From Alphaproteobacteria bacterium (GTDB lineage Bacteria; Pseudomonadota; Alphaproteobacteria; UBA9219; RFNS01), in NCBI GenBank assembly GCA_037200005.1, contig JBBCGY010000001.1, forward strand, positions 42,416-106,415: a stretch of 64,000 nucleotides of DNA, given 5' to 3'. A program made the translations under genes and the position numbers. Below are positions 60-25,776 of this stretch, one piece after another (the stretch's first letter is position 1; the number at the start of each line of letters is the position of its first letter). The notes beneath the pieces were generated by a model that saw only the letters and a list, made by a program, of their open reading frames with translations, did no database searches and was not told the origin of the DNA.

Positions 60-545
60 TTACGTTTTGAATGGATTATCGAAAACGAGACCGACCTTGC
101 CTGAGAGCGGCCAAATACCATGCTCAGAACCGAATCCTAATTCGAGGGAGAGTTCGCGCAAGGATTTAAAGATTAGAGAAAAGATGCTCCATATCTTACA
201 TGCGATAGAGACGACGTATTCTTTGACCCGCTCGATGAATTCGATAAGCGCATCTCTGGTTCGTCGTGCATAAGTTCTAAGAGAGGCCAACACGCTAGAG
301 GCCAAAGATTTTACATGCAGGAGAAATCGCTCGGCATGCCCTTTGGTCAATTCAACTCCTCTCGCTATTCTATCTGGCATGATGTCGCAATATTCTAGAA
401 AAGCAGAAAAAAGTTCACCTTCTTCCTTTGGAAATTCTCTAGTCGCATCGGTATCTTTGGCGATCCTTATGTCCTGTTTTAGACTCACGAGGATGGCATT
501 GACGGCTGCATCGTCAGCTTTTTCAGATAGTTCTAGAATAAGCAT
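60..545 (-). CDS. hypothetical protein (lower-GC, accessory)
   Basis: 161-aa ORF with no recognisable motifs; AT-richer than the core genome. Confidence 0.3.
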   Translation of the reverse strand: MLILELSEKADDAAVNAILVSLKQDIRIAKDTDATREFPKEEGELFSAFLEYCDIMPDRIARGVELTKGHAERFLLHVKSLASSVLASLRTYARRTRDALIEFIERVKEYVVSIACKIWSIFSLIFKSLRELSLELGFGSEHGIWPLSGKVGLVFDNPFKT

Positions 546-2331: not shown

Positions 2332-3892
2332 ATGGCGCAAGCGAAAAAGGCAAAGAAACAGGGCGGCAATGGGGCTAATTTGGGGTTTGAAGCCCAGATG
2401 TTCCAAGCCGCCGACAAAATGCGCGGCAGCATGGATGCCAGCGAATATAAGCATGTCGCCCTGGGACTGATTTTCTTGAAATATATCTCCGACGCTTTTG
2501 AAGCCAGACATGCGACTGTCAAAGCGGACGGCGAGGACCCGGAAGACCGCGATTTTTATATCGCGGAAAATGTCTTCTGGGTTCCCAAAGAGGCCCGATG
2601 GAACCATCTACAAGCGAATGCCAAGCAACCGACCATCGGTAAATTGATTGATAATGCCATGCTGGCGATTGAGTCGGCGAATGCCTCTTTGAAGGGGGTT
2701 TTGCCAAAGGATTATGCCCGCCCAGCCCCTCAACAAACAAATGCTTGGCGAGCTGATCGACCTTATCAGCGGCATCGGGATGCATGAGGGCGCAGGCAAG
2801 AGCAAAGATATTCTTGGGCGCGTTTACGAATATTTCCTCGGTGGCTTTGCCGGAGCCGAAGGCAAGCGCGGCGGTGAATTTTATACGCCGCGTTCCGTAG
2901 TCATGCTGCTGGTTGAAATGCTGGAGCCTTATAAAGGCCGCATCTATGACCCTTGCTGCGGTTCGGGCGGCATGTTCGTTCAATCGGAGAAATTCGTGCT
3001 GGCGCATGGCGGGCGCATCGGCGACATCGCCATCTATGGCCAGGAAATGAATAACACCACATGGCGCTTGGCCAAAATGAATATGGCGGTGCGCGGCATT
3101 GACACGGATATTCGCTGGAACAATGAAGGCAGCTTCCATAAAGATGAATTCAAAGACTTGAAGGCCGATTATATCCTCGCCAATCCACCGTTCAACGTAT
3201 CGGATTGGGGAGCGGATCGCCTGCGCGAAGATGTGCGGTGGAAATACGGCTTGCCGCCTGCTGGCAATGCCAACTACGGCTGGCTACAGCATATCATCCA
3301 CCATTTAGCGCCGAATGGCGTTGCCGGCGTTGTGCTGGCCAATGGCAGCATGTCTTCCAATCAGTCCGGTGAAGGCGAAATCCGCAAGGCTATGATTGAA
3401 AAGGATTTGGTCGATTGCATGGTGGCCTTGCCAGGGCAGCTATTCTATTCAACCCAGATTCCGGCCTGCCTGTGGTTCTTGGCGCGGAACAAAAAAACAT
3501 CGCATCCGCGCAATCGCAGCGGCGAAGTCTTGTTCATTGATGCCCGGAAAATGGGTGTCATGATTGACCGCACCCGCCGTGAGTTAACGGAAGATGACGT
3601 TAAGAAGATCGGCGCTCTCTATCATGCCTGGCGCGGTGAAAAAGACGCCGGGAAATATGCCGACATTCCTGGTCTTTGCAAGGCGGCAAAGTTGGATGAA
3701 GTCTCCGGTCATGGCTTTGTCCTCACCCCTGGCCGCTATGTCGGCAGCGAAGCGGTGGAAGATGACGATGAACCGTTTGAGGTGAAATTTCCCCGACTGG
3801 TTGTTGAGTTGGAAAACCAGTTTGAAGAAAGCGATAAACTCACTGCCCAAATTCGGCGGAATCTGACTTTGTTGGGAGGGTCGCAAAAATGA
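2332..3892 (+). pseudogene. hsdM: type I restriction-modification DNA methyltransferase subunit M, frameshifted (+1 in a C-tract near 2725-2735)
   Basis: N-terminal '[31 protein letters not shown]' in frame 1 continues in frame 2 as '[17 protein letters not shown]...[11 protein letters not shown]...[10 protein letters not shown]...LANPPFN' (SAM-MTase motifs I and IV). Removing one C from 'gcccct' restores ...[19 protein letters not shown]. Confidence 0.8.
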
Positions 3893-4380
3893 CGCTCAAC
3901 CACAAATACATCAAACAGATATTGATTTCCTTGCGGGACAATCCAGCTCCCAGCATGGACAGTTATGATCTGGCAAAAATTTGTGGCGTTGATATGAACC
4001 ATATTGATGAATTGGCGTTTGGTAAGTTTGTGACCCAACTGCGCCTGCTAAAGGATATGGCATGCATAGACTGTCCCGTGGACAATCTCGGCTTTAGCCA
4101 GAACATCAATCGCCACTGGATAATTTGTCGCACCACCTATCGGCTCTCCAGCCAGGGGCACAGTTTTCTGGACACAGAAAACAAAAATACCCTGTTCAAT
4201 AAGGGAAAGGCGTTCTTCTTTTCAGCCTTTACGGAAGCTGGAAAGCGTTTTCTGATTCAGGCAATAACGGCAATTTTTATTGTTGTGCTGGCTACCGTTG
4301 CCGCAAACGCTGGTCTTTTCAAAATTTCGAGTTCGCATGGCCTAGCTAATCTCAAAAATCCAAAAGAGCGAGGGCTATGA
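3889..4380 (+). CDS. hypothetical protein with C-terminal transmembrane helix, inserted between hsdM and hsdS
   Basis: 163 aa; ATGA overlap with the hsdM stop; AT-rich codon usage; C-terminal hydrophobic segment [23 protein letters not shown]; its stop overlaps the hsdS start. Confidence 0.45.
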
Positions 4381-5696
4381 TGTCTCTTTCGGAATGGCAA
4401 ATATTATCATTTAAAGAAGCTGGTGTTCAGTTGATTGATTGCGATCACAAAACACCCCCGGCATCTTCTTATGGGTATCCATATGTTACGATCCCTCAAA
4501 TCAAAAATGGGCGCATAGATGTGTCTGAAGCAAGGCGGATTACCGCAGAACATTTCAAAGAGTGGACAAGGAAGGCCAATCCAAAGCCCTTTGACGTTGT
4601 CTTATCTCGTAGATGCAACCCAGGAGAAACTGCCCATGTCCCTGCGGGGCTAGAGTTCGCTCTTGGACAAAATCTCGTTTTGTTGCGTGCAAATGGTGAA
4701 AAGGTATTTCCGCGATATTTACGATGGCTTACGCGGGGAGTGTTATGGTGGGAACAGATATCAAAGTTTATTAATGTGGGCGCCGTTTTCGATAGTTTGA
4801 GATGTGCGGACGTTCCAAATTTTCAATTTCCAATACCAGCACTGCATGAACAAAAAGCAATTGCTTCAATATTGACCGCACTGGACGATAAGATCGAACT
4901 GAACCGCCGGATGAATGCGAACCTGGAGGCGATGGCGCGGGCGGTGTTCAAAAGTTGGTTTGTCGATTTCGACCCCGTCCGCGCCAAAATGGCAGGCCGC
5001 CAACCCTTCGGTATGAGCGCGGCTACCGCTGCCTTGTTCCCCTCGCGCCTCGCCCCCTCCGAACTCGGCGATATTCCGGAGGGGTGGTCGGTCGATCAAA
5101 TCGGGAACGCGGTCACCGCCGTTGGCGGCAGCACCCCCAGCACCGAAAATCTAGAATATTGGACTGATGGGCAGTATGCCTGGGTAACGCCAAAAGACCT
5201 CTCTGCACTGAAATCGCCTGTTTTGTTCACAACGGAACGCAGGATAACAGATGCAGGAATCCGTGTTATCAGTTCCGGACTTCTGCCGTCGGGTACTGTT
5301 TTGATGTCTTCCCGTGCGCCAATCGGCTATATCGCAATCGCCGAAACGTCCGTTGCCATCAATCAAGGCTTCATAGCCATCGTTTGTGACAAAGAGCTTC
5401 CCAATTTATACGTCTGGCAATGGCTGCACGCCAATCTTGACATGATCAAAAGCCATGCAAACGGCTCAACCTTTCAGGAAATCAGCAAAGGCAGTTTCCG
5501 GCCTCTCCCCTGCATCATTCCATCAGCAAAGGTTCTCGAAAAATTTCAGGCAATCGTTTTGCCTATCTGGCAAAAACTCGTTGCGAATGAAAAAGAGTGT
5601 CTGGGGCTAGAAAAAACGCGCGACTACCTTCTTCCCAAACTAATCTCCGGCGACATCCGCATCCGCGACGCCGAGAAATTTATGGAGGCTGCATAA
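4377..5696 (+). CDS. hsdS: type I restriction-modification specificity subunit S (two target-recognition domains)
   Basis: Central conserved 'LHEQKAIASILTALDDKIELNRRMNANLEAMARAVFKSWFVDFDPV' and C-terminal 'LPKLISGDIRI' repeats typical of HsdS; intact 439-aa ORF. Confidence 0.9.
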   Translation: MMSLSEWQILSFKEAGVQLIDCDHKTPPASSYGYPYVTIPQIKNGRIDVSEARRITAEHFKEWTRKANPKPFDVVLSRRCNPGETAHVPAGLEFALGQNLVLLRANGEKVFPRYLRWLTRGVLWWEQISKFINVGAVFDSLRCADVPNFQFPIPALHEQKAIASILTALDDKIELNRRMNANLEAMARAVFKSWFVDFDPVRAKMAGRQPFGMSAATAALFPSRLAPSELGDIPEGWSVDQIGNAVTAVGGSTPSTENLEYWTDGQYAWVTPKDLSALKSPVLFTTERRITDAGIRVISSGLLPSGTVLMSSRAPIGYIAIAETSVAINQGFIAIVCDKELPNLYVWQWLHANLDMIKSHANGSTFQEISKGSFRPLPCIIPSAKVLEKFQAIVLPIWQKLVANEKECLGLEKTRDYLLPKLISGDIRIRDAEKFMEAA

Positions 5697-7150
5697 TGAA
5701 TCGCTGGGTAAATTCGTTCCAGAACCATCCTTTCCAAAAGCCATGGAAAGATATTGTGGAGCTTTCAGAAAAGATTGCTCTTCAAGATGAGACTGTCGCA
5801 ACTGACGTCCAAGAGCTTGCGCGTCTAAAAAAGGTTATAACCTATGTTGGCCAGTTAATAGGTGCAGCTGATCCGGAATTGATTCCATTAAGCATATGGA
5901 GTTCTTTTCAGGACCAGGCCACGCAGTGTGCAGATCAAATCAATCAGTACAACAGCAATAAGAACATTACTCACCTCAGCAACGCTAATAGCAATCTAGA
6001 TAATTTATTGACATATGTTCGCCCTTATGTGGTTTCTGCAGAGGGGGCGGCTCAGGCGGCAATGTCTGCGTTCATAGTGTATTCCGACACCATCAATACA
6101 CAGACCGATCTGATACAATCAAAAACCCAAGCCTCTGTTAACGGTACGCAGGCGAACAAAGAAAAGTCTGATGAAATATACAAAGAAATAGAGCAGTCAA
6201 AGCACAACATTCAACAATTGGAACAAAAATTTTTGATCGGCGATAGCAATGAGAAGAGCCTCCAGGAAAGAATGCAGATTCTTCTTGGGGAAGCCCAGGA
6301 GTGGAATAAAATAATTGGTGAGTTTCACAAACGGCTGACAAGCGGCAATGAACAAGAAAGCGCAATTTCGCTACAAATCGAAGAAGCAAAAAATAAAGCT
6401 ACTAAGGATAAGGAGGCTATAGAAAGTGCCCTTCAATTATCTGAAAATTTAATCAAAGACCTCAAAGAGTTTTATGAGCGAGTTTTTGGCAAAGAAGGCA
6501 GTGACGGAAACGTCATGGTCGGTCTAAAGCAAGAATTGGATAACCGCATTAAAGAGCTTGATAATTTTAAAATTAATCAAGGAACAGCCTACAATACCTT
6601 ATTTCAAAAAATTGAATCTCTACTGCCCGGAGCAACAAGCACTGGTCTTGCCAGTGCGTATAGAGAATTAAGAGACTCTTTTGCTGCGCCCATCAATATC
6701 TATACGCTAGTGTTTTGCTTCACCCTAGCAGTGATGTTTTTTGTTGGCTTGTGGGGTGTTGACTTCGGTGATGATGTGGGATTGAACAAGATGCTCGGCA
6801 GTCTCTATCACAAACTCCCACTTTTACTGCCCATCCTGTGGCTGGCAATTTTTGCTTCCAGACGAAGAAGCGAAAGTCAAAGGTTGCAACAAGAATATGC
6901 CCATAAAGAGGCGCTCGCAAAATCATTTCAAAGCTTCAAAAAACAAATTGATGCATTGCAGGAGAAGGACGAGGTCCTTACCAAGAAACTCCTGGATGCT
7001 ATGATCGGTGCCGTGTCCCATAATGCATCACAAACACTGGATGGAAAACATGGAGATAAAATTCCAACGCAAGAACTTCTAGAGGGAGTTATCAAGAAAT
7101 TTCCTGCGCAAAGCTTTTTTGAAAAATTAGTCGATAAAATCCTTAAATAG
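5696..7150 (+). CDS. coiled-coil protein with two C-terminal-proximal transmembrane helices, unknown function (candidate defence/abortive-infection effector)
   Basis: 484 aa from an ATG overlapping the hsdS stop (TAATG). N-terminal half is long Q/E/K-rich heptad-like stretches; TM helices 'INIYTLVFCFTLAVMFFVGLWGV' and 'LPLLLPILWLAIFAS'; AT-rich relative to flanks. Confidence 0.6.
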   Translation: MNRWVNSFQNHPFQKPWKDIVELSEKIALQDETVATDVQELARLKKVITYVGQLIGAADPELIPLSIWSSFQDQATQCADQINQYNSNKNITHLSNANSNLDNLLTYVRPYVVSAEGAAQAAMSAFIVYSDTINTQTDLIQSKTQASVNGTQANKEKSDEIYKEIEQSKHNIQQLEQKFLIGDSNEKSLQERMQILLGEAQEWNKIIGEFHKRLTSGNEQESAISLQIEEAKNKATKDKEAIESALQLSENLIKDLKEFYERVFGKEGSDGNVMVGLKQELDNRIKELDNFKINQGTAYNTLFQKIESLLPGATSTGLASAYRELRDSFAAPINIYTLVFCFTLAVMFFVGLWGVDFGDDVGLNKMLGSLYHKLPLLLPILWLAIFASRRRSESQRLQQEYAHKEALAKSFQSFKKQIDALQEKDEVLTKKLLDAMIGAVSHNASQTLDGKHGDKIPTQELLEGVIKKFPAQSFFEKLVDKILK

Positions 7151-7233
7151 GGAACAATGTGAATGGTCTGTTAGGGGCAAAAAACTCGTCACATCCAACT
7201 TATCAAGTACGTTCCTCGGAAAGAGCTACTCAC

Positions 7234-8319
7234 ATGACCTTTGACCGCAACACACCCTACAACGATCTTCCGCTTTTGCCACCGGCGCAGATCGACCTGG
7301 AAACAAAGCCTATTCTCAAAAAGGCGATCACGGCGAATATCGCGCTTGCCAAGCTGTTCGACGCGGGAAAGTTGATTCCCAATCAGGCGCTTCTGGTTCA
7401 GGCGATTGGGTTGCAGGAAGCCAAGCTGTCCAGTGAAATCGAGAATATCGTCACGACCAATGACGATCTTTACCGCGCTTTCGCGGATGAGGGCGTGCAT
7501 TCCAGCCCCGCAGCCAAAGAGGTTCTGTTTTACAAGGACGCGCTCTGGAAAGGCTATAACGCGATCAAACTGGAAAAGCGCCCGCTCTCCACGCGCCTTT
7601 TTGAAGATACGTTCCGCATTATCAAGCAATCCTCTGACGGCATCCGGCGTTTGCCGGGCACGAAATTATCGAACCCGGCAGGCGAGATTATCTACACGCC
7701 GCCCGAAGGCGAAAATCTTTTGCGTGACAAGCTCTCCAATCTCGAAAAATTTCTTTACGCCGAAGACGGGCTTGATCCTTTGATCAAAATGGCCGTCATG
7801 CACTATCAATTCGAGGCTATTCATCCCTTCACCGACGGCAATGGGCGCACGGGGCGCATTCTCAATCTTTTATATTTGATCGAGTGCGGGTTGCTGGAGA
7901 TTCCGGTTTTGTATCTATCCCGCTACATCATCGAACACAAAACGGATTATTATCTGGGACTGCGCGGCGTAACCGAGGGGCAAAATTGGGAATCGTGGAT
8001 TCTCTATATTCTCGATGCGATTGAAGTGACGGCGCAGATGACCAGAGATCGGATTCTTCGCATTCATTCTTTAATGGACAAGACGGCGGAGGCGGTCAAA
8101 GCCCAGGCTCCCAAAATCTATTCCAAAGACCTTATTGAGGTGATTTTCCGCCAACCCTACTGTAAAATTCGCTTTTTGGAGGAGGCAGGGATTGCCCAAA
8201 GGCAGACCGCCTCCACTTATCTCTCCAAATTAGAGGCTTTGGGTATTTTGGAGTCCGTAAAGGCTGGACGCGAGAAATATTATATTAATCCGGCATTCTT
8301 TAACCTTTTGGCAGAATGA
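7234..8319 (+). CDS. Fic family protein (AMPylase-type Fic, class II with N-terminal inhibitory motif, C-terminal wHTH)
   Basis: Canonical Fic motif HPFTDGNGRTGR; N-terminal 'MTFDRNTPYNDLPLLPP' typical of the Fic N-terminal domain; 'SSEIEN' fits the (S/T)xxxE(G/N) inhibitory motif; start taken at an internal Met of ORF 7159-8319. Confidence 0.85.
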   Translation: MTFDRNTPYNDLPLLPPAQIDLETKPILKKAITANIALAKLFDAGKLIPNQALLVQAIGLQEAKLSSEIENIVTTNDDLYRAFADEGVHSSPAAKEVLFYKDALWKGYNAIKLEKRPLSTRLFEDTFRIIKQSSDGIRRLPGTKLSNPAGEIIYTPPEGENLLRDKLSNLEKFLYAEDGLDPLIKMAVMHYQFEAIHPFTDGNGRTGRILNLLYLIECGLLEIPVLYLSRYIIEHKTDYYLGLRGVTEGQNWESWILYILDAIEVTAQMTRDRILRIHSLMDKTAEAVKAQAPKIYSKDLIEVIFRQPYCKIRFLEEAGIAQRQTASTYLSKLEALGILESVKAGREKYYINPAFFNLLAE

Positions 8320-8386
8320 CATGGTTATTTTCTGCATGTTTATGAAGTGCTTAGGTGATATGTTGTTTTGATCGACACATCGTTCC

Positions 8387-8421
8387 AACATGTCGAAAAA
8401 ATCAGAAAATTTCGACATGTT
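8387..8421. promoter_or_regulatory. inverted repeat AACATGTCGAAA-n11-TTTCGACATGTT upstream of hsdR
   Basis: perfect 12-nt arms at 8387-8398 and 8410-8421, ~85 nt upstream of the hsdR ATG. Confidence 0.3.
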
Positions 8422-8503
8422 GAGGCTTGTGCCCTTGTTGGTTCTAAAATGCGCTTAACCGAGGCCAAACAGGCAACGGCATCGCAGTCCAAAGAGAAAA
8501 TCG

Positions 8504-11500
8504 ATGGTCGCTGACATTCAATACACCCAGCCGGAACCGAATTATGACGGATTCCGCGAAGCGCATGTTGAAGAAGCAACTTTCGATTGGCTCTCTGGGC
8601 TTGGCTGGACACTCGCGCATGGGCCGGATTTGGCACCGGAAGGCAAAGCCCCGGAGCGGGCCAGTTATGGCGACGTGCTGTTGTTGGGGCGGTTGAGGAC
8701 AGCCTTGGCCGCGATCAACCCGCAACTCCCCGCCGATGCGATTGACGACGTGGTGCGTAAGATTATCGCAGTCGAAATGCCGTCTTTGGTCGAAGAAAAC
8801 CGGCGCTTGCATAAACTGATGGTCGATGGCGTGGCTGTGCAATACATGCAGGCCGACGGCACGATCAAAAACGACATCGCGTGGCTGATCGACTGGGAAA
8901 ACAAAAAGAACGATTGGCTGGCCGTCAATCAATTCACGGTCATCGAAGAACGCAACAATCGCCGCCCCGACGTGGTGATGTTTATCAACGGTTTGCCCCT
9001 TGCCGTTATTGAATTGAAGAACGCGGGAGACGAAAACGCGACAATCGAAGGCGCGTTCCGCCAGACGCAAGCTTACAAGCAATTGATCCCTTCTCTGTTT
9101 CGCACGAACGGCATACTGATTATTTCCGACGGACTGAAAGCCCGCATCGGCAGCCTGACCGCAGATTATGAGCGTTTCATGCCATGGCGCACGGTGGATG
9201 GGGCCGGTGTCGCGGCCAAAGGAACGCCCGAATTACACACAATGATTCACGGCGTTTTTGAGCAAGGGCGTTTTCTGGAGTTATTGCGCCGGTTCACCGT
9301 GTTTCAAAGCAACGGCAAAGATATTTTCAAAATCGTAGCAGGATATCACCAGTTCCACGCCGTAAAGCTCGCCGTTGCCAGCACCATCGACGCAACGGCC
9401 AGTGAAGGAAATCGCAAAGTCGGCGTCATCTGGCATACGCAAGGATCGGGCAAAAGCCTGTTGATGGCATTTTATGCGGGCAGCGTGATTGCCAATCCTG
9501 CGATGGCCAATCCGACTCTGGTTGTGCTGACCGACCGGAATGATCTGGACGACCAGCTTTTTTAACACTTTCAGCCTATCTCGTGATCTTATCCGCCAGA
9601 CGCCCGCGCAAGCGGGAGATCGCGATGAATTGCGGAAGCTTCTGGCGGTATCATCTGGCGGCGTTATCTTTACGACCATTCAAAAATTTCTGCCCGCTGA
9701 TAGTGAAAAAACTTTCCCGCTGTTGACTGACCGCAAGAATGTCATCGTCATCGCCGATGAAGCGCACCGCAGCCAATATGGCTTCAAGGCCAAGTTGGAT
9801 AAAAAGTCGGGCGAATTAGCTTATGGTTTTGCGAAACACCTGCGCGATGCGCTGCCGAATGCGTCCTTCATTGGCTTTACAGGAACGCCTATTGAGAAAG
9901 CAGATGTCAATACGCCCGCCGTATTCGGCGATTATATTGATGTCTATGATATTCAACGCGCGGTCGAAGACGGCGCGACGGTGCCAATCTATTACGAAAG
10001 CCGCCTAGCCAAACTCCAGCTTGACGAAGAGGAAGTCAAAAATCTTGATGCTGAGGTCGAAGAACTGACCGAAGACGAAGAATCCAGCGAGCGCGAGCGT
10101 AAGAAAAGCAAATGGTCGCGCGTTGAAGCCCTGTGGGAGCCGAAACACGCTTGGCTCAAGTAGCCGCCGATATTGTTCAGCATTTTGAGAACCGTATCAG
10201 CGCCTTAGACGGCAAAGGCATGACCGTATGCATGAGTCGCCGTATTTGCGTGGCGCTCTATAACGAGATTATTAAATTACGGCCCGCATGGCATTCAGAC
10301 GATGACGCGCAAGGCGCTATCAAGATTGTGATGACGGGCAATATCGCCAACGATCCGCCTGAATGGTTGAAACATACGGGCAGCAAGGCGCGCCGTGATT
10401 TCCTGGCAAAGCGGGCGCGCGACGCTAAAGACCCGCTAAAACTTGTTATCGTTCGTGATATGTGGCTTACGGGCTTTGATGCGCCCTGCATGCACACGAT
10501 GTATGTCGATAAGCCGATGCATGGTCATGGCTTGATGCAGGCCATTGCCCGTGTAAATCGCGTATTCCGCGACAAGCCAGGCGGCTTGATCGTTGATTAT
10601 ATCGGGATTGCCCATAATCTGAAACAAGCTCTCTCTATTTATTCCCCCGGCGACCGCGAAGAAGTCGGCATTGACGAGCAGCAAGCCGTCGCAGAGATGA
10701 TGCGCCGCTATGAAATCGTCCGGGATATGTTTTATGGATTCGATTATATGCGCGCGCTGCACGGCACACCGGCTGAACGCTTAGTGCTGATGGCCGAGGC
10801 TCTGGAGTGGATTCTCGATTTGCAGCAACGTGAAGCTGCAAAAGAACAGACCGAACAAGCCAGGAAAGAGGTGCGCCGCAAATTCTCAGACGCCGTTGTT
10901 GGCTTATCGCGCGCCTATGCGCTGGCCGCAACCTCGCCAGAAGCGGGGAAAATTCGTGATGAAGTCGGTTTCTTCCAGGCTATTCGTGCAGCCCTGGCAA
11001 AAAATGAGCCGGGCAAAGGTAGCACACAGGCGGAAATCGATGTGGCCGTCCAACAAATGGTCAGTCGTGCCGTGGTGTCAACGGAGATTGTCGATATTCT
11101 GGCGGCGGCAGGCATTAGAACCCCGGATATATCCATCCTCTCAGATGAATTTCTGGCAGAAATTCAAGGCATGAAGAAGCGTAACCTTGCATTGGAAGCC
11201 TTACAGAAACTCATCAATGGAGAAATAAAATCCCGCATCAAATCGAACGTGGTGCAATCTAAGAAATTCAGCGAACGACTGGAAGCCGCCGTCCGGCGCT
11301 ATCATAACAACGCTATAACTGCCGCGCAGCTTTTGGAGGAGCTGATTGCCATCGCAAAGGATATTAAAGCTGACCGCGAACGAGGAGAAGAACAAGGACT
11401 TAGCGAAGAGGAAATCGCTTTTTATGATGCTCTGGCTGAAAATGAAAGCGCATTGCAGTTGTTGGGCGATGAGAAATTACGAGTGATTGCTACTGAACTG

Positions 11501-11680
11501 GTTGTCTCCGTTCGCAATAATGTGTCTGTTGACTGGATGCACCGCGATAGCGCCCGCGCCAAGTTGCGCATCGAAGTCAAAAAGATTCTCAAGAAATATG
11601 GCTATCCGCCAGATTTACAGGATGCAGCGGTGCAACTGGTGTTGCAGCAGGCCGAAGTTTTGGCCCCACTCTGGGCATAA
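8504..11680 (+). pseudogene. hsdR: type I restriction enzyme R subunit (HsdR), disrupted by two frameshifts (~9555 and ~10140)
   Basis: Three consecutive ORFs (frames 2/3/2) cover an HsdR: N-terminal domain, DEAD-box helicase motifs 'HTQGSGKS', '[12 protein letters not shown]', 'FTGTP', C-terminal domain. First break is in a T6 run (ctttttt; dropping one T reads DDQLFNTF). Second is a 1-nt loss at 'ctgtggga' (restoring g gives [17 protein letters not shown]). Confidence 0.85.
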
Positions 11681-14820: not shown

Positions 14821-17800
14821 ATGGTGGCACCTGCGAAGAAATTTCACGAAGCGAACGGCGAACTCACCAATGAGGCAGGGGCAACGCGACCGCCGCTCTC
14901 GAGGAACAGCCTCTGGCGGACACTGCGCCCCGGGATCTCGGTGGGAGTAAGCCTCGCGGCAGTCGTCGCTTGCGAAAGCGGCGAACCCAACGCTTCAAAT
15001 GACAACATCGTTTCGATTTCCCAAGCGATAGGCTCTGCGACAATCTATAGCTTGCCTACCAATGTTTTGATGCCCAATGCCATCAATAATCAAAATCTCA
15101 TTGTGGGCCAGGGTCTGCCTTCGATCTATGATGCCAACACGGGAACATTTAGTAGCCTTGAAGTAAACCAGCCTTCGGGGGCGGTCACTTCCTATGCAAT
15201 TAGCAATGCCGGTCACGTTGTCGGCAATTCATTCAATGTTGGGCCGGTTTCCAATTCGGCGTTCATTTCACAGGGCGGACATTTGTCCGATCTATACGCC
15301 GGCAACAACAACGGGGTGACCAGCGTCGCTTACGGCGTCAACAATTATGGCCAAGTCGTCGGCACGATGCCGGTGACGGTCAACGATGCGAACAATAGTC
15401 CACATCCTTTCACGCATGCGTTCTCGTGGCAGGGCAGCGTTACAGACCTTACACCGAACTACTATGGAAATTCAGCCGCCTATGGCATCAACGATGCTGG
15501 GCAGATCGTGGGAACGATAGGAACTGCGGGGGTCAAGTGGCAGGGCGGATCGTCAAGCACGCTGCCGAGCGGCACCAGCACGCCCGCCATGATCAACAAT
15601 GTCGGTCAGATCGTCGGGACATATAGTTCAGGCGGTTCGTCGCACGCTTTCCTTGTGCAGAGCGGCACCCTGACCGATCTCGGAGCCATACAGGGAAGCA
15701 CACCTGTGAGGATCAACAACAAAGGACAAGTTACGGGCGGCTTCTACAACACGGGTGCCGGACAATATTACCCGAGCGTCTGGCAGAATGGCGTCGTGGT
15801 TACGATTCCCACTCTGTCGGGCATTCCCGCAGGCTGGTCTATCACGTCGATAAACGGCATCAATGACAGCGGAACCGTCGTAGGGCAAGGCACGCTTTCG
15901 GGTTCTTCACGGGGTTTTTACCTAACTTCGCCGCAGCTTCTGAACTACGCCATTGCCGGAAAGCCCTACGATCCGAAAGCGAATGGTGGTGAGGATTCGG
16001 CGTCAACCCCGACAGACGATCTATGTGGAACTCATGGCATGTGTGTGCCCAACGCGCAATTGCTGTCGGCCAGCTTGAATTTGAACGATACGCCGATTGG
16101 GTATCAGCCGCCCAAAGGGCCACCAGCCTATATCCGGCTTACATATAATCATCGTGACAGTGTCGCGCCCAGCAGCACTTCCTCGCATGTTGGGCCAAAC
16201 TGGACTCTGAATGTCATTTCTTACATTCAGGATGATCCGGCCAGCCCGGGCCAGAGCGTCACGCGCAACGTGGCGGGCGGCGGTATCGTCGACTACACTT
16301 TTGAGGCAGGGCAGTTCAATACCACCACGGGTGCATTCGGGCCGGAGAAGCAAACCGGGGCGATCTTGAAACGGACTCCCGCGACAGGGTTCAGCGCCAG
16401 TGCTTCCTATGAGCTTTCCTTTCCCGATGGGGCCAAGCAAATATTCTCCTACCCGGATGGAAGCTTCAATTATCCGCGCCGCGCATTCCTGACGGATATC
16501 GTTGATGCCTCAGGCCAGGGCCTGCATTTTGGCTACAATTATCTTCAAGGAACTTTCGGCGCGATCAATTGCACGCCGGGATGTCCGCAACTGCAATCAG
16601 TTTCTGATGCTAATTTCCGTGCAACAAACTTCGTCTACGGTGACGCATCTAATGTCTTGCGCGTGACGCGGATTAATGACCCGTTCGGGCGTCACGCCGA
16701 TTTAGCTTATGATGGCAGCGGACGGCTTTCGTCAATCACGGATGTGATCGGCATTCAATCGTCTTTCACCTATGACACCACCGACCCTACTTTCATCAAA
16801 AAGCTAACGACACCCTATGGCGATAGCAATTTCGTCTTTGGGCAAGATACGGCGACGGATCGTCGTTGGCTCACACTCTCCGATGCCGTGGGCAATACGG
16901 AAAAAGTGGAATACCGGGGCAGCAGCGCCAGCGGCATAGCGGCGTGCGACAAAAACACGAGCGATGCGTCGTGCAGTGTCTCGACCTCCGTGCCGACAGG
17001 CATGCCTAACGGCATCAATAACGCCGATCTCGACAAGCGCAACACCTTTGTCTGGAACAAATGGATGTATGCGAATGGCTATGGCAGCGATTACACGCAG
17101 GCGAATGTTACCCATTGGCTCAAGGACGGTGCGGGCAATCCCGTGGGGATTCCGGAAAGCGTCAAGCCGCTGTACGAATCCCGCATTTGGTATAATTATC
17201 CCGGCCAGAACGATCCTAGCACCCCAGGAACCCTGTCTGTGCCGAGGGCGACGGGCCGCGTGATCACCGATCCGCTTTACGGGCAAGCGCCGCAGAATCA
17301 GGTTTACCAAAGTCAATATAACAGCCTCGGCAAGCCCACCTTGACCGTCGATCCCTACAAGGTTTCAGGCAACAACAATGAAGGCCGAACTACACGCATG
17401 ACCTATGATGCCTCCGGCGTCGATCTTTTGACGGTGGAACAGAAAACCGGCAGCGGAACGCCGGGGACATGGGCGACGATTGCTTCCTACGTCTATACCG
17501 ATCCGACAGAACAGCCCACATCGATCCACAAACCGATCCGCTATACCGACGCGGCGGGGCAAACTTATAAATTCAAATACAATGGCGACGGCCAATTGAT
17601 CTATGCCGCCAATCCCTACAACGATACGACGTATAATGAATATCATCCGTCCGGCAAGCTCCTGCGGACGACCATGCCTGTGCCGAGCGTAAACTGGAAT
17701 ACCATCGATTATGGAACCGATATTAACGGCGCGCCGACGGGGGCGAGCAACAGCAGCGCCCTAAGGGACACCGCCATTACCTACGACTCCGCCGATCGTC

Positions 17801-20202
17801 CGTATGACGTGACCGACCGGATGGGTCTGGTGAAGCGTTTCGGCTACGACAATCTCGACCGGGTAACGCGGGTGGATTACGCCCCCGGCACGGCGGGCAC
17901 GACCTATGAGACGAACACCTATACCAACCTCGACCTGACATCGCACCGCGACCGGCTTGGCCGGGTTAGCACCGATGTTTACACGGCGAACCGGCAGCTG
18001 TGGCTGAGCTTCAATGCTTCGGGAACGCGGCGGGGCTTCACCTATTACCCGAACGGCGCGCTACAAGGCTACTACGACGAGAACGACCATCCTACAATCT
18101 ACGGCATCGACGGCCAGGGACGCGCCAACGCCGTCGTCTATCCCAATGGCAACCAGACGAATTACTACTACGATGATGGCGGGCGGATGCGCACCATTGT
18201 CGATCTCGACGGCTCGAACCAGCGCTGGCGGAACATTAAATATAACGTCGATAATAGCGTCCATATCCGCGACTATACCAACCCGGCAAATCCGTCCGAT
18301 CCCGTGGTTCTGGCGACGACAACCGCGACCTTCACCTACGATCCATGGTTCCCCGGACAAATGACTTCAATGGCCGATGCCAGCGGAACGACCAACTATA
18401 CATACAAAACCGTAGGCACCGTCGGCGCCTTACAACTCGCGACCGAAAATCCGCCGACGGTAAGCGGCGACGCGGATAAAATCACCTACACCTATGACCA
18501 GAAGGGACGGCTCGCCTCGCGCCAGATCGGTATCGGCACGGCGAGCGTGCTGCCGCAGGAAAGCTGGGTGCGCGACACCTATGGCCGCATTAACAGGCAC
18601 ATCATTCCCGACGGCAACCTGTTCTATTACGACTTCAACGGCGCGAGCAATCAGGTGACAATGCGCGCGTTTCGCAATCAGGCGCTGACGGAGATCGACC
18701 CGCTGAATACGCGCACGATGATGAGCTACGACACGGCGGCGAACGACTCGCGGCTGCTGACGATCAACAACCCGCCCTACGACAACAGCGCGCCCGGCGC
18801 GCGGGACTTCACCCTCAATTGGGGATCGTCGCCCGCCAATCCGTACGTTCCGGCGACGATCACCGACTCCGCTGGAGGCCCCGGCGGGGCGTGGGGACAG
18901 CGGGTGTGGACGATGGGCTATGACGCGCGCGACCGGCTGACCTCGGCGGTCGCCGCCGACCGCAGCTATTCGTTTACCCTGGACGCGCCGGGCAACGCGA
19001 CGAGCTTCACCAGCACGCACTATCCGAGCGGCGGGCTGTATAGCTTTAACTCGACCTACAACACGTCGAACCAGATGACGGTGGCGAACGGCAACGCGCT
19101 GATCTACGACCCCTACGGCAACCTCGTCACCCACACGAACTACCGCAGCTTCAAGTACGACGCCGAGAACCGCCTGATCGAGGTCGACTTCCCCGCCGCG
19201 CCCGCCGACAAGGTTGAGATGCAATATGACGGTCTTGGTCGCCGCACGCAGATCAAATCCACCATCGGCGGCGTCGTCACGACGCGGAACCTGCAATGGT
19301 GCGCCCAGACGACCTCGCCGCCGTTCCAGGGCGCGGCGGAAGAGATATGCGTCGAGCGCGACGCATCGGGCGGCATGCAGCGCATGGTCTATCCCGAGGG
19401 CGAATATCGCGCCAACGGCGGCCGGTACTTTTATGAACGCGACCAGACCGGCAACATCCGCGACGTGATGAAGATGGCGGCGGGATTGACGACCGCCGCG
19501 CGCGATAGCTCCTTCAACTACACGCCTTATGGCGGCGTCGACGGCAAAGACGGCACTGCCGAGCCGCTGCAGCAGTTCGCGGGACTGCTGTATGAGAAGA
19601 ACAGCAACCTGTTCCTCTCCCGCACCCGCGCCTATGCCCCATGGATCGGCAGATGGCTCCAGCGCGATCCGATTGGGCAGAATGGGGGGAGTAATGTTTA
19701 TGAGTATGCGGGGGCGAGTCCGATTAACAAGATTGATCCGAGCGGGTTGCAGGGGGTGCGACCTGGGTTAATAGAAACGATGCGACCTACAATAGGAGTG
19801 CCACCAGCAGCGGGGATCAACGAGGGGGCAGGAAATTACGCCGATTATCTTCAAGAAAATGGAGAAATGATGGGTGATCTAGCCACCCTTTATAGGGCCA
19901 CTAGCGCGGCGGTTGCCGGTGCGAGCAACCAATCAATGCGAGAGGATATTGAAAAAGCAAAAGTATGCACATCGTTTGGAAACAGCATGTCGGCGGATCA
20001 GCCGTTATGGTGCGGGCCTGGCGGATGCGCGGATAGCGTCAGGCAGCAGTGGCTGGATGCGACCGGCGGCTTAGTGTATCCACAAATCATCGAGTCTTTC
20101 AAAAAGAGGTTTGAACCGGCTCCCTCGCGGCTTGTGTCGACGCCGATGCGTGGCAATGACTTCGGTAATTCGGTTTTATTCCCTAATGTGGGCCCAGGTT
20201 AG
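14821..20202 (+). CDS. RHS/YD-repeat toxin with N-terminal HAF-type extracellular repeats and a C-terminal variable toxin domain
   Basis: 1793 aa. N-terminal repeated 'GINDAGQIVG' and 'HAFLVQSGTLTDLG' motifs (HAF-repeat-like); many YD-type repeats (YDxxGRL, YTYD, YDALGR). RHS core end motif 'YEYAGASPINKIDPSGL' is followed by a ~150-aa Cys-containing CT domain. Confidence 0.9.
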   Translation: MVAPAKKFHEANGELTNEAGATRPPLSRNSLWRTLRPGISVGVSLAAVVACESGEPNASNDNIVSISQAIGSATIYSLPTNVLMPNAINNQNLIVGQGLPSIYDANTGTFSSLEVNQPSGAVTSYAISNAGHVVGNSFNVGPVSNSAFISQGGHLSDLYAGNNNGVTSVAYGVNNYGQVVGTMPVTVNDANNSPHPFTHAFSWQGSVTDLTPNYYGNSAAYGINDAGQIVGTIGTAGVKWQGGSSSTLPSGTSTPAMINNVGQIVGTYSSGGSSHAFLVQSGTLTDLGAIQGSTPVRINNKGQVTGGFYNTGAGQYYPSVWQNGVVVTIPTLSGIPAGWSITSINGINDSGTVVGQGTLSGSSRGFYLTSPQLLNYAIAGKPYDPKANGGEDSASTPTDDLCGTHGMCVPNAQLLSASLNLNDTPIGYQPPKGPPAYIRLTYNHRDSVAPSSTSSHVGPNWTLNVISYIQDDPASPGQSVTRNVAGGGIVDYTFEAGQFNTTTGAFGPEKQTGAILKRTPATGFSASASYELSFPDGAKQIFSYPDGSFNYPRRAFLTDIVDASGQGLHFGYNYLQGTFGAINCTPGCPQLQSVSDANFRATNFVYGDASNVLRVTRINDPFGRHADLAYDGSGRLSSITDVIGIQSSFTYDTTDPTFIKKLTTPYGDSNFVFGQDTATDRRWLTLSDAVGNTEKVEYRGSSASGIAACDKNTSDASCSVSTSVPTGMPNGINNADLDKRNTFVWNKWMYANGYGSDYTQANVTHWLKDGAGNPVGIPESVKPLYESRIWYNYPGQNDPSTPGTLSVPRATGRVITDPLYGQAPQNQVYQSQYNSLGKPTLTVDPYKVSGNNNEGRTTRMTYDASGVDLLTVEQKTGSGTPGTWATIASYVYTDPTEQPTSIHKPIRYTDAAGQTYKFKYNGDGQLIYAANPYNDTTYNEYHPSGKLLRTTMPVPSVNWNTIDYGTDINGAPTGASNSSALRDTAITYDSADRPYDVTDRMGLVKRFGYDNLDRVTRVDYAPGTAGTTYETNTYTNLDLTSHRDRLGRVSTDVYTANRQLWLSFNASGTRRGFTYYPNGALQGYYDENDHPTIYGIDGQGRANAVVYPNGNQTNYYYDDGGRMRTIVDLDGSNQRWRNIKYNVDNSVHIRDYTNPANPSDPVVLATTTATFTYDPWFPGQMTSMADASGTTNYTYKTVGTVGALQLATENPPTVSGDADKITYTYDQKGRLASRQIGIGTASVLPQESWVRDTYGRINRHIIPDGNLFYYDFNGASNQVTMRAFRNQALTEIDPLNTRTMMSYDTAANDSRLLTINNPPYDNSAPGARDFTLNWGSSPANPYVPATITDSAGGPGGAWGQRVWTMGYDARDRLTSAVAADRSYSFTLDAPGNATSFTSTHYPSGGLYSFNSTYNTSNQMTVANGNALIYDPYGNLVTHTNYRSFKYDAENRLIEVDFPAAPADKVEMQYDGLGRRTQIKSTIGGVVTTRNLQWCAQTTSPPFQGAAEEICVERDASGGMQRMVYPEGEYRANGGRYFYERDQTGNIRDVMKMAAGLTTAARDSSFNYTPYGGVDGKDGTAEPLQQFAGLLYEKNSNLFLSRTRAYAPWIGRWLQRDPIGQNGGSNVYEYAGASPINKIDPSGLQGVRPGLIETMRPTIGVPPAAGINEGAGNYADYLQENGEMMGDLATLYRATSAAVAGASNQSMREDIEKAKVCTSFGNSMSADQPLWCGPGGCADSVRQQWLDATGGLVYPQIIESFKKRFEPAPSRLVSTPMRGNDFGNSVLFPNVGPG
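18992..19752. repeat. direct repeat copy 1 (3' part of RHS core), ~99% identical to 21503-22263
   Basis: identical antisense ORFs 19140-19385 and 21651-21896 in the track; aligned offset 2511 nt; the few mismatches give G->D and K->R differences. Confidence 0.85.
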
Positions 20203-20206
20203 TCCT

Positions 20207-21478
20207 ATGAAAAAGTTTACTCTATTGCTTGTCGCGCTTTGTAGTCTGACAATGTTACCGGCTCATGCCGCTGACCAAGACTCCAAACCACCCGTCATTG
20301 ATATTCCTGCCACGCGAAAAGAGGCGGAGTCTGGAGATGCTCGGGCTCAATATAATCTGGGCATAGCTTATCTCAACGGTTACGGGGTGAAGAAAAATAA
20401 AGATGAAGCTATTGAATGGATTTACAAAGCAGGGAAGAACAATGATGCCCTCGCAATATATTTCTTGGGCAGCGCATATCATGATGGCGACCTTTTGCCA
20501 CAAGACTACGCCAAGGCTATGAAGTGGTATCACAGGTCCGATGAATTATACGGCAGTCCCCTTGCGCAGAATATGCTTGGCGTGATGCACGAAAACGGTC
20601 AGGGGGCTCCACAGAATTATGAAGAAGCGGCTAGGTGGTATCGCAAAGCTGCCGAGAATATTTACGCACCGGCTCAATCCCATCTTGGATTCCTATACTA
20701 CGCTGGACGCGGCGTTCCTAAGGACGATCAAAAGGCTCTATATTGGCTTAAGAAAGCAGCCATACAAAACGATGCGCCAGCAAAGCTTATGCTAGGCATT
20801 ATGCACTATAAAGGCGAAGGAGTGGAAAAGAATTACGTTAAAGCTGTCAGCTATTTTCGCGAAGCCGCAGACGTCGGAATATCGATAGCTGAACGATATT
20901 TGGGAAATATGTATTACCACGGCGAAGGCGTTTCCAAGGATGAAGCCCAGGCTGTGTCTTGGTGGCGCAAAGCCGCCGAACAAGGGGATAGGGAGTCGGA
21001 AAAGATCATAGGTGGTATGTACTATTATGGCACAGGAGTGTCGAAGGATTTTTCCCAAGCCGTTTTATGGTGGCAAAAAGCTGCGGAAAAGGGTGATGTC
21101 GATGCTCAATGCAACTTGGCGAAAGCTTACTATCATGGAGAAGGTATAGGAAAAGATGAAACTCAAGCTGTGTTATGGTGGCGGAGGGCCGCGGCACAAG
21201 GACATGGAGAATCCCTCCTTTATTTAGGACAAGCGTATTTTAGTAGCATAGGCGTATCGCAAGATGATGTGCAGGCTTATATATGGCTAAGCTTGGCGGC
21301 TACAAGAAATCAGTCGTCAGCGGTTGCAACACTCACGGAACTCGAAAAGTCCATGACGCCGGAACAAATCGCTGAAGCCAGAAAACGCGTGGCAGAATGG
21401 AAACCCAAGCCTGAGCCAAAGCCTGCCCCAATAGGGCCAATACCCGAAATTCTAAAAGAAGTCCGTGAAGATTTATGA
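20207..21478 (+). CDS. Sel1-repeat (SLR/TPR-like) periplasmic protein, probable cognate immunity protein for the RHS CT toxin
   Basis: Starts 5 nt after the RHS stop; signal peptide MKKFTLLLVALCSLTMLPAHA; ~9 Sel1 repeats (AQYNLGIAYLNGYGVKKN..., AxxWYRKAAE...); start taken at an internal Met of ORF 20111-21478. Confidence 0.75.
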   Translation: MKKFTLLLVALCSLTMLPAHAADQDSKPPVIDIPATRKEAESGDARAQYNLGIAYLNGYGVKKNKDEAIEWIYKAGKNNDALAIYFLGSAYHDGDLLPQDYAKAMKWYHRSDELYGSPLAQNMLGVMHENGQGAPQNYEEAARWYRKAAENIYAPAQSHLGFLYYAGRGVPKDDQKALYWLKKAAIQNDAPAKLMLGIMHYKGEGVEKNYVKAVSYFREAADVGISIAERYLGNMYYHGEGVSKDEAQAVSWWRKAAEQGDRESEKIIGGMYYYGTGVSKDFSQAVLWWQKAAEKGDVDAQCNLAKAYYHGEGIGKDETQAVLWWRRAAAQGHGESLLYLGQAYFSSIGVSQDDVQAYIWLSLAATRNQSSAVATLTELEKSMTPEQIAEARKRVAEWKPKPEPKPAPIGPIPEILKEVREDL

Positions 21479-22668
21479 TCTCGACTTCGAGGATGCATTT
21501 GGGCAATGCGACGAGCTTCACCAGCACGCACTATCCGAGCGGCGGGCTGTATAGCTTTAACTCGACCTACAACACGTCGAACCAGATGACGGTGGCGAAC
21601 GGCAACGCGCTGATCTACGACCCCTACGGCAACCTCGTCACCCACACGAACTACCGCAGCTTCAAGTACGACGCCGAGAATCGCCTGATCGAGGTCGACT
21701 TCCCCGCCGCGCCCGCCGACAAGGTTGAGATGCAATATGACGGTCTTGGCCGCCGCACGCAGATCAAATCCACCATCGGGGGCGTCGTCACGACGCGGAA
21801 TCTGCAATGGTGCGCCCAGACGACCTCGCCGCCGTTCCAGGGCGCGGCGGAAGAGATATGCGTCGAGCGCGACGCATCGGGCGGCATGCAGCGCATGGTC
21901 TATCCCGAGGGCGAATATCGCGCCAACGGCGACCGGTACTTTTATGAACGCGACCAGACCGGCAACATCCGCGACGTGATGAAGATGGCGGCGGGATTGA
22001 CGACCGCCGCGCGCGACAGCTCCTTCAACTACACGCCTTATGGCGGCGTCGACGGCAGAGACGGCACCGCCGAGCCGCTGCAGCAGTTCGCGGGACTGCT
22101 GTATGAGAAGAACAGCAACCTGTTCCTCTCCCGCACCCGCGCCTACGCCCCATGGATCGGCAGATGGCTCCAGCGCGATCCGATTGGGCAGAATGGCGGC
22201 GCGAATGTTTATGAATATGCGGGGGCGAGTCCGATTAACAAGATTGATCCGAGCGGGCTTCAAAGCATCCAGAATGCGGATGACTGGATAAAACAGAGAA
22301 ATGCCCCTGCTCAGCCGTCAAATAGTATTTGGAGTGAGATCCTAGATAAAATCAGAGAACCTGTGTCTAGAAATGAAGCCATTAGTGAGATTACAAATTT
22401 CCGTCAATCTGGAGAGGCCCAAACTGAAGCACAGATAGCTAGAATGCTCATGGGTTTACCCGTCGAACCTGATTTTTCTGTTGCTATAGGAGGGGCTGAA
22501 GGTGAGCAAGATCTTGGCAGAGCGATTATGTCGGTAGCGCGCGAGATTTTGCGCCGCCCTGCGGAGCAGTCGTGCCCAATAGTTCAGAGAAAAGTCTTCG
22601 GTCAATCCTTGCCACCAAGTGATTTTGGTGACAAGAATCTCCCACTGCCATCTATATTAACCCTTTAA
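21475..22668 (+). CDS. orphan RHS C-terminal module (core tail + alternative CT toxin domain)
   Basis: ATGA overlap with the preceding Sel1 gene. After a 9-aa unique leader, residues match RHS 1391-1644 nearly identically through 'DPSGLQ', then diverge into a different ~135-aa C-terminal domain. Confidence 0.8.
   Translation: MISTSRMHLGNATSFTSTHYPSGGLYSFNSTYNTSNQMTVANGNALIYDPYGNLVTHTNYRSFKYDAENRLIEVDFPAAPADKVEMQYDGLGRRTQIKSTIGGVVTTRNLQWCAQTTSPPFQGAAEEICVERDASGGMQRMVYPEGEYRANGDRYFYERDQTGNIRDVMKMAAGLTTAARDSSFNYTPYGGVDGRDGTAEPLQQFAGLLYEKNSNLFLSRTRAYAPWIGRWLQRDPIGQNGGANVYEYAGASPINKIDPSGLQSIQNADDWIKQRNAPAQPSNSIWSEILDKIREPVSRNEAISEITNFRQSGEAQTEAQIARMLMGLPVEPDFSVAIGGAEGEQDLGRAIMSVAREILRRPAEQSCPIVQRKVFGQSLPPSDFGDKNLPLPSILTL
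21503..22263. repeat. direct repeat copy 2 (orphan RHS core tail)
   Basis: see copy 1. Confidence 0.85.
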
Positions 22669-22700
22669 AGAATATGAGTGGAATTGAGGGAGTTAATGCA

Positions 22701-25584: not shown

Positions 25585-25776
25585 ATGAGCCAGGAAGCAT
25601 ATCGCGTGAAAGAATTCTGCAACCGCTACGCCATTTCAAAAGCCAGCTTCTACCGGGAAACAGCGGCGAAGCGGCTGCATATCCTAAAACGTGGCCGTAC
25701 AACGCTCGTTGCCCGCACCGAAGCCGAACGCTGGTTTGAAAGCCTTGGCCAAGGCCAGCCGCAGCAATCAGCCTGA
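25585..25776 (+). CDS. AlpA/Xis-like DNA-binding protein (prophage CP4-57 regulatory family)
   Basis: 63 aa, 'KEFCNRYAISKASFYRETAAKRLHILKRGRTTLV' fits the AlpA HTH; strong RBS 'gggaggaag'; sits directly upstream of the integrase. Confidence 0.65.
   Translation: MSQEAYRVKEFCNRYAISKASFYRETAAKRLHILKRGRTTLVARTEAERWFESLGQGQPQQSA

Follow-up and report, generated by a model that had tools for sequence, protein, structure and literature searches.

We examined a type I restriction-modification (RM) operon in a 64,000-nucleotide stretch of DNA from an Alphaproteobacteria bacterium (contig JBBCGY010000001.1 of assembly GCA_037200005.1), hereafter called the window. Six plus-strand genes occupy positions 2332 to 11680 in the order hsdM, p163, hsdS, p484, Fic and hsdR, where p163 and p484 are our names for the genes, and their products, of 163 and 484 amino acids (Table 1). 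Pfam places HsdM, HsdS and HsdR domains in this one same-strand cluster, which identifies a type I RM operon, and the open reading frames (ORFs) bear out the four same-strand genes that an initial, sequence-only reading had placed between hsdM and hsdR. Our main subject is p484, which belongs to a large family without a name and is plausibly a mobile anti-phage effector.

The first three junctions of the operon are tight. ATGA overlaps join hsdM to p163 and p163 to hsdS, a TAATG overlap joins hsdS to p484, and Shine-Dalgarno sequences of good quality precede the start codons of p163 and p484 (for p484, GGAGG 8 nt upstream). The Fic gene begins at the ATG at position 7234, 83 nt past the p484 stop codon, a start backed by homologs and by the SoFic profile described below, and a further 184 nt separate it from hsdR. 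Tight coupling, which the sequence-only reading had ascribed to all of the genes, therefore extends no further than p484. The same reading had described the two non-Fic genes as AT-rich, and their GC contents of 45.1% (p163) and 41.5% (p484) are indeed low relative to the 50-53% of the RM genes and Fic and the 56.9% of the whole window.

More than 1,210 homologous clusters at 90% identity make up the p484 family, all with members of about 450-500 amino acids, and the start codon of p484 is confirmed because these homologs align from the first methionine. The 240 homologs listed are annotated as 'hypothetical' or 'coiled-coil domain-containing', apart from one spurious 'MIC60' label, and none carries a Pfam domain. 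Pfam, NCBIfam and PADLOC v2 yield no family for p484, only low-score coiled-coil matches to SMC and TrlF (17-20 bits against cut-offs of 350-567) and to JetC (E 0.026, the only PADLOC match). Homology to housekeeping proteins such as methyl-accepting chemotaxis proteins (MCP) or SMC amounts to no more than this coiled-coil noise. P-loop and ABC families are absent from the Pfam, NCBIfam and PADLOC matches, and SLATT is not among the Pfam matches listed for the whole protein. A full-length profile search of the PDB recovered designed coiled coils, an SMC coil and an MCP coil (E 1e-3 to 1e-5), all confined to the stalk of the protein, and the same search with the C-terminal module recovered nothing. 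When 66 C-terminal modules were compared with Pfam at E values up to 10, PilO was the sole recurrent match (a transmembrane (TM) helix plus coil), and neither SLATT nor HEPN is among the 25 most frequent families listed.

Two PHROGs families of similar length and unassigned function, phrog_30912 (E 1.6e-4, over the C-terminal module) and phrog_34659 (E 9e-3), are weakly matched by p484 and may be distant phage relatives; BFVD contains one marginal full-length match, and seven IMG/VR viral contigs carry p484. Our literature search found no paper that describes or mentions the family or six of its accessions. The same six accessions do not appear in the portion of the supplementary tables of Payne et al. 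(bioRxiv 10.1101/2024.01.29.577857) that was available, which is weak evidence. Judged by these comparisons, p484 is an uncharacterised, widespread, non-housekeeping protein that falls in no named family.

An AlphaFold2 (AF2) model of p484 built with 65 homologs (mean predicted local distance difference test score (pLDDT) 78.9) is entirely helical and contains very long helices (residues 115-181, 189-215, 219-264 and 277-354), in agreement with the long coiled coil and two TM helices described in the sequence-only reading. The compact N-terminal domain bears a set of conserved residues (W4, F8, H11, F13, W17, D31, R43, K46, D59, E61, N98 and D102). It is followed by three very long antiparallel helices (residues 115-264) that end in a conserved glycine-rich turn, FGxK...GGL, after which a 78-residue helix runs into TM1; a second helix comprises TM2 and a cytoplasmic extension. 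Both termini are placed in the cytoplasm by the positive-inside rule, because RRRSE follows TM2 and the loop between the TM helices is acidic.

Conservation is distributed unevenly along the protein. Mean column conservation is highest in the post-TM2 helix (0.81), intermediate in the pre-TM1 helix (0.68) and TM2 (0.64), and lowest in the stalk (0.37). The near-invariant positions are R390, R391, R396, Q399, E400, Y401, H403, K404, E405, S410, Y411, Q417, N443 and S445, and H452 is invariant in the 65-sequence alignment. We also compared 26 alleles of Campylobacter concisus that are 85-97% identical. Their substitutions fall mainly in the N-terminal domain and the stalk (residues 1-20, 61-120 and 161-200), the N-terminal domain being the most variable region, whereas the post-TM2 helix is invariant and residues 361-400 do not vary at all. 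This pattern fits, without proving, a protein in which a variable sensing end is joined to a fixed effector end.

Table 1. Features of the RM operon and of the p484 protein. Nucleotide positions are those of the window.
Feature	Residues	Nucleotides	Strand	Basis or remarks
hsdM (methyltransferase)		2332-3892	+	Pfam HsdM_N, N6_Mtase; two ORFs, 2332-2787 and 2714-3892
p163 (163 amino acids; DUF2513-like with C-terminal membrane anchor)		3889-4380	+	phrog_585, hydropathy, junctions
p163 hydrophobic helix	121-139	4249-4305	+	Kyte-Doolittle hydropathy
hsdS (specificity subunit)		4377-5696	+	Pfam Methylase_S in two stretches; PADLOC Specificity_I, E 2e-119
p484 (484 amino acids; large unnamed family)		5696-7150	+	junction, homologs, AF2 model
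p484 N-terminal compact helical domain	1-115	5696-6040	+	pLDDT >90, alignments
p484 antiparallel helical (coiled-coil) stalk	~116-300	6041-6595	+	AF2; column conservation
p484 conserved membrane module	301-454 region	6596-7075	+	alignments, hydropathy, conservation
Module: pre-TM1 helix	301-336			LLPGATS(A/T)GLA motif
Module: TM1	337-355			strong; followed by short acidic loop
Module: TM2	~373-389			contains proline; conserved across family
Module: post-TM2 helix	390-420			near-invariant RRSExxRLQQEYAHKEA
Module: C-terminal motif	443-454			NASxTLDxKHGD
SoFic-type class II Fic protein adenylyltransferase		7234-8319	+	Pfam, PADLOC, NCBIfam, motifs
Inverted repeat, perfect 13 bp, CAACATGTCGAAA-N11-TTTCGACATGTTG		8386-8422		in SoFic-hsdR spacer
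hsdR (restriction subunit)		8504-11680	+	Pfam HSDR_N, SWI2_SNF2, T1R_D3-like, T1RH-like_C; three ORFs in the window

To place p484 in its genomic context, we sampled one genome per species, which gave 80 loci besides the window. These span alpha-, beta-, gamma- and epsilonproteobacteria and Verrucomicrobia, with hosts that include the human-associated C. concisus and marine Vibrio, Pseudoalteromonas and Shewanella. In 19 of the 80 genomes p484 recurs beside RM genes, always right after hsdS, usually with stop and start codons that overlap or nearly abut; by our own, uncomputed estimate, random placement would put a gene beside hsdS far less often. These operons belong to at least three type I RM families and show two gene orders. 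The order hsdM-hsdS-p484-hsdR is found in the RM family of the window and in a distinct C. concisus family, and the order hsdR-hsdM-hsdS-p484 in an EcoEI-like family. Several of these operons carry p484 as their sole passenger. The sequence-only reading had named two outcomes that would count against it, a clear housekeeping homology of p484 and a lack of conserved co-occurrence with RM or defence loci, and neither was observed. In a neighbour-joining tree the RM-linked copies fall into at least nine clades interspersed with solitary copies, and because they are so scattered, the association must have been gained or lost on many occasions. The remaining 61 loci are free of hsd genes and of hsd remnants within 10 kb of p484. 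An apparent hsdS fragment near one solitary copy (locus L029) was rejected as a 31-residue chance match.

In the RM-linked loci p484 has hsdS on its upstream side and hsdR on its downstream side; we found no other conserved partner gene, and the remaining neighbours cluster only within close lineages. Genes that share RM operons with p484 are largely PADLOC candidates for embedded defence genes: RhuM (PDC-S05), RhuM-Fic (PDC-S23), KAP NTPase (PDC-S20), DUF4917 (PDC-S21), DUF4268 (PDC-S11) and PDC-S42, together with an RmrA-like gene. Sister operons hold RhuM, RhuM-Fic, KAP NTPase, DUF4917 and DUF4268 genes in the same slots.

The adjacency to hsdS raises the question of whether p484 serves the RM enzyme itself, as a non-effector accessory such as a membrane tether or a regulator of assembly or of restriction alleviation, with solitary copies acting in trans on RM systems elsewhere in the genome. 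Its strict, translationally coupled position beside hsdS in 19 of 80 genomes is what such a protein would show, and a coiled-coil stalk in the cytoplasm with a membrane anchor would be apt for a scaffold. However, most copies are solitary, including one in a prophage moron position and one beside a type III RM system, and the genes embedded together with p484 are independent defence candidates. The classical, well-studied type I RM systems are not known to need a p484-like protein. We therefore consider an accessory role quite improbable.

A PrrC-like role as a guard of the RM enzyme is also unlikely. Under this hypothesis p484 would be held latent by contact with HsdS or the M2S complex and would fire once the enzyme had been disabled by an anti-restriction protein of a phage; the effector might then be an RNase-like site close to the membrane and not a pore. 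The gene occupies the prrC slot, its start codon overlapping the hsdS stop codon, across two gene orders and three RM families that are unrelated to one another, and its conserved residues R396, E400, H403 and H452 fit two known patterns. R396-x6-H403 corresponds to the HEPN-like Rx6H pattern, and R396-x3-E400-x51-H452 resembles the R-x3-E-x36-52-H triad of PrrC and RloC. The finding that 75% of p484 copies lack RM genes within 10 kb counts against a guard, yet RloC is RM-linked in only 8 of 73 genomes and is nonetheless thought to act with RM enzymes in trans. In addition, p484 lacks an ABC ATPase domain. Models of HEPN, PrrC and RloC are not among the matches listed for the C-terminal module in the Pfam and PDB profile comparisons, or among those listed for the fold, and the motif lies at the start of a short, low-confidence helical region where a four-helix bundle of the HEPN type cannot be recognised. 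Chance alone can also produce motif matches as short as these. We treat both motif coincidences as leads and not as evidence; profile and fold comparison support neither.

Several loci point to mobility of p484. In a Mu-like prophage of Endozoicomonas (L083 8398-13975), p484 and a 192-amino-acid gene, both on the opposite strand, separate the portal gene from the large-terminase gene, which is a moron-like position. Another copy is flanked by a D12 methylase on one side and a type III RM system on the other. A solitary copy in an IS110-rich island (L087 4425-17801) is part of a long run of small same-strand ORFs, with IS110 transposases, a Fic gene and a gene with an FRG domain, in a layout that resembles an integron-like cassette array. 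At a metagenomic locus (L103/L104 3613-15113), the order BrxR(WYL)-130 aa-hsdM-hsdS-p484-hsdR is followed by a HATPase_c_3 protein, and a Tn7-like TniQ gene lies 1.4 kb upstream on the opposite strand; this operon looks like a regulated, transposon-borne defence island. A 188-amino-acid serine recombinase (resolvase/invertase) directly precedes hsdM in three RM operons that contain p484 (L004 6639-7205, L024 and L080), and a homolog of it lies on the opposite strand upstream of a solitary p484 (L051 9119-9685), which hints at mobility or inversion of p484 loci. Finally, at each of the 67 loci where the comparison could be made, p484 has a lower GC content than its flanks, by 10 points on average.

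The same observations might be expected of mobile cargo without a role in defence, such as a superinfection-exclusion or entry-blocking protein, an addiction toxin or an envelope-stress protein, for which the variable 3' end of hsdS would be only a recombination hotspot. The patchy distribution, low GC content and prophage and Tn7-like contexts of p484 all agree with this explanation, as does the acceptance of many unrelated genes at the hsdS-hsdR junction. Conversely, a protein that excludes incoming phage would itself be a defence protein, and no conserved antitoxin gene stands beside p484. On balance we regard non-defence cargo as possible but rather unlikely.

The explanation that we favour, with moderate confidence, is that p484 works autonomously against phage as an effector of the abortive-infection type, anchored in the membrane and horizontally mobile. 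This proposal derives from its adjacency to hsdS, its repeated moves between RM-linked and solitary positions, its prophage and transposon-gene contexts, its foreign base composition and its membership of a non-housekeeping family. The slot between hsdS and hsdR is known to house defence genes, including PrrC (PMC2610378), DarTG2 (PMC12255303) and TgvAB (PMC11411939), and the approach of 'guilt by embedding' has been validated by experiment for seven systems (Payne et al., bioRxiv 10.1101/2024.01.29.577857).

If p484 acts in this way, its N-terminal domain and the antiparallel stalk of about 100 angstroms would form a sensing and oligomerising part, with both termini in the cytoplasm, and the invariant juxtamembrane module (pre-TM1 helix, TM hairpin and post-TM2 helix) would be the effector. 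A phage cue would cause this effector to perturb the inner membrane or a membrane-proximal target, and the infected cell would be stopped. Placed after hsdS, p484 would be co-transcribed and probably co-translated with the RM genes, and might provide a second layer of defence, as do PrrC, DarTG2 and TgvAB in the same slot. This mechanism is drawn from the anatomy of the protein alone. Membrane perturbation would be the simplest output, and an enzymatic or ion-binding site is equally allowed. That p484 is a membrane-disrupting abortive-infection effector, as the sequence-only reading suggested, remains a deduction from its architecture; we found no hidden Markov model (HMM) or fold link to any known pore-forming or two-TM effector family, nor to a solved fold.

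A number of observations weigh against an anti-phage effector. About 75% of p484 copies are solitary, with neighbours that are mostly housekeeping genes and few integrases, and defence-island enrichment around these copies was looked for and not seen. No homology ties p484 to any validated defence protein; the protein matches no PADLOC v2 model, including the 145 'embedded' PDC candidates, and searches found it absent from INPHARED phages, PLSDB plasmids and, at the DNA level, E. coli genomes. Its AT-richness is partly expected of a coiled coil rich in Lys, Glu and Asn. TM2 is only moderately hydrophobic, and the many invariant polar residues beside the membrane suit an enzyme or a binding site equally to a pore. 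In addition, hsdM looks frameshifted in the window, and the host RM system may therefore be inactive there.

A more speculative hypothesis, which we think unlikely, is that p484 is the founder of a new class of RM-coupled sentinels. In this scenario a membrane protein co-translated with HsdS would monitor either a phage anti-restriction factor or whether the type I enzyme is intact. Killing or arrest would proceed through an undescribed catalytic or ion-conducting site of the invariant juxtamembrane helix (R396, E400, H403, K404 and E405) on the cytoplasmic face of the TM hairpin, and solitary copies would share this effector but sense phage directly by means of the N-terminal domain.

The other two passengers appear to be independent of p484. 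The Fic gene encodes Fic_N, Fic and SoFic-like_C domains (Pfam) and carries the active-site motif HPFTDGNGRTGR at residues 197-208 (HxFx(D/E)GNGRxxR pattern). Together with SSEIEN at residues 66-71, which corresponds to the N-terminal inhibitory motif (S/T)xxxE(G/N), this identifies a class II Fic protein, as the sequence-only reading had proposed. The PADLOC SoFic model PDLC03963 matches over its full length (E 2.4e-115, residues 13-360 of 361), and the NCBIfam equivalog NF046030 scores 484.3 bits, below its cut-off of 550. By sequence, then, the protein is a member of the SoFic family, though short of the NCBIfam equivalog, and the gene is a defence gene already known, not part of an undescribed module. 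SoFic is described as an AMPylating abortive-infection toxin (PMC12249575) and is a named single-gene defence system in PADLOC. The window protein resembles it in domain architecture, class II inhibitory helix, active-site motif and full-length PADLOC match, and differs in its NCBIfam score and in that no clear homolog of the 47-amino-acid AS1 antitoxin, the anti-SoFic gene described in E. coli, was identified downstream of the Fic gene.

The product of p163 has the C-terminal TM anchor attributed to it earlier, a single strong hydrophobic helix (Kyte-Doolittle hydropathy 2.52). That neither non-Fic protein belongs to a named family holds for p484 and not for p163, which by sequence comparison is a divergent member of DUF2513/phrog_585 with an added C-terminal membrane anchor. 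Its match to Pfam DUF2513 (PF10711) has an E value of 1e-3 and falls below the cut-off (19.7 bits against a gathering score of 29.6), and phrog_585 is matched with E 4e-9 in PHROGs. A word-indexed search returned only p163 itself and one homolog, and an exhaustive phmmer search of 1.84 billion representative proteins returned 32 relatives, mostly of about 130 amino acids and aligned to residues 1-128. DUF2513 is matched by 21 of 25 aligned relatives (best E 1e-11). The N-terminal ~128 residues thus align with a small family that hits PF10711, whereas the hydrophobic extension is present in only 4 of the 25 aligned sequences, p163 included. A single-sequence AF2 model (pLDDT 46) was too poor for use. 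The closest homolog (70% identity; L096) lies directly upstream of an hsdS with different target-recognition domains, on a short contig on which no p484 is visible. The next closest, of 58% identity (L097 3581-4998), lies on a small plasmid-like contig with an RPA replication protein, ParA, a ribbon-helix-helix (RHH) antitoxin and an integrase, 2 nt after an unrelated gene for a 311-amino-acid protein that has no relative in any locus fetched for this analysis. We conclude that p163 is a real but rare gene borne by mobile elements.

These results bear on the proposal of the sequence-only reading that p163, p484 and Fic form one co-operating defence cassette. The three genes do lie on the same strand in one operon with three overlapping junctions. 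However, p163 homologs are absent from all 80 of the other p484 loci. SoFic does not recur with p484 either; a weak Fic fragment, at a distance of 4 kb, is present at only one locus. The closest homologs of p163 are found upstream of an hsdS of different specificity or on the plasmid-like contig, and SoFic is described as a system of one gene (PADLOC; PMC12249575). A single cassette is accordingly very improbable. The locus is best explained as a type I RM operon that belongs to a tRNA-Lys-associated genomic island and has acquired three independent passengers at its intergenic junctions.

The low-GC island that holds the operon (window positions 1-27200) adjoins a tyrosine integrase (25691-27031) and tRNA-Lys (27112-27187), and its far boundary lies beyond the window. 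Other genes on the island encode a 1793-amino-acid RHS-repeat protein or toxin (14821-20202), Sel1-repeat proteins (20111-23489), a SprT-like protein (1092-1772), several helix-turn-helix regulators and DUF736.

Both ends of the operon contain reading-frame disruptions. In hsdM, a C-run near positions 2744-2748 has one extra base (CCAGCCCCTC, compared with CCA-TCTCTC in the closest relative, L003). The extra base is common to the window assembly and to an independent Logan assembly (L002). It may mean that hsdM is truly a pseudogene, that the tract is phase-variable or that both assemblies carry one sequencing error. In hsdR, single-base homopolymer indels occur at 9558 and 10132. The Logan assembly of the same locus differs from the window only at these two positions and has an intact hsdR ORF of 1058 amino acids; because this independent assembly lacks both indels, the breaks in hsdR are assembly errors of the window.

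Promoter, terminator and Rfam scans of the operon gave nothing above chance. The inverted repeat in the SoFic-hsdR spacer has no T-run and looks more like an operator, perhaps that of hsdR, than a terminator; it is overlapped by two small ORFs, of 22 and 48 amino acids. A second perfect inverted repeat, of 14 bp with a 2-nt loop (ATCCCCGCAGGACG/CGTCCTGCGGGGAT; 2221-2250), lies about 80 nt upstream of hsdM, where it might terminate the preceding gene or serve in regulation.

RM operons with nested defence genes have been a productive source of new immune mechanisms, among them PrrC, DarTG2, TgvAB and the Hma-embedded systems. If p484 is defensive, it would be a further single-gene system based at the membrane and, with PrrC, the second gene that strongly prefers the 3' junction of hsdS, and communication between RM enzyme and passenger would become testable in several hosts. 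The locus itself is not one new cassette; its insertions are independent and form a mosaic, and one of them was known before.

Among known systems, the two-TM abortive-infection effectors (SLATT, the two-TM proteins of retrons and CBASS, AbiZ and Tmn) resemble p484 in linking a cytoplasmic part for sensing, putative in p484, to a membrane module of two helices, in a mobile, single-gene format. In contrast to these proteins, p484 has RM genes or unrelated genes as neighbours with no link to nucleotide signalling, and possesses an invariant polar juxtamembrane helix that is not described for them. Unlike Tmn, it lacks an NTPase domain. SLATT is not among its listed Pfam matches, and none of the others is matched in PADLOC. 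Like PrrC, p484 can be a single gene inserted directly after hsdS and before hsdR, where it is probably co-expressed with the RM genes, and like RloC it also occurs away from RM systems; a conserved R-x3-E...H pattern, which we take as a lead, is present in p484. However, p484 is an integral membrane protein with a coiled-coil stalk, has neither an ABC ATPase domain nor HMM or fold similarity to these nucleases, and is solitary in 75% of cases, whereas PrrC is almost always embedded. With respect to other embedded genes, p484 matches none of the 145 PDC candidates and has no recognisable enzymatic domain. Nonetheless, it shares the hsdS-hsdR slot and the genetic logic of DarTG2 in enteropathogenic E. 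coli (EPEC), of TgvAB in Vibrio cholerae VPI-2 and of the PADLOC PDC genes, of which PDC-S05, S11, S20, S21, S23 and S42 are found in its own sister operons.

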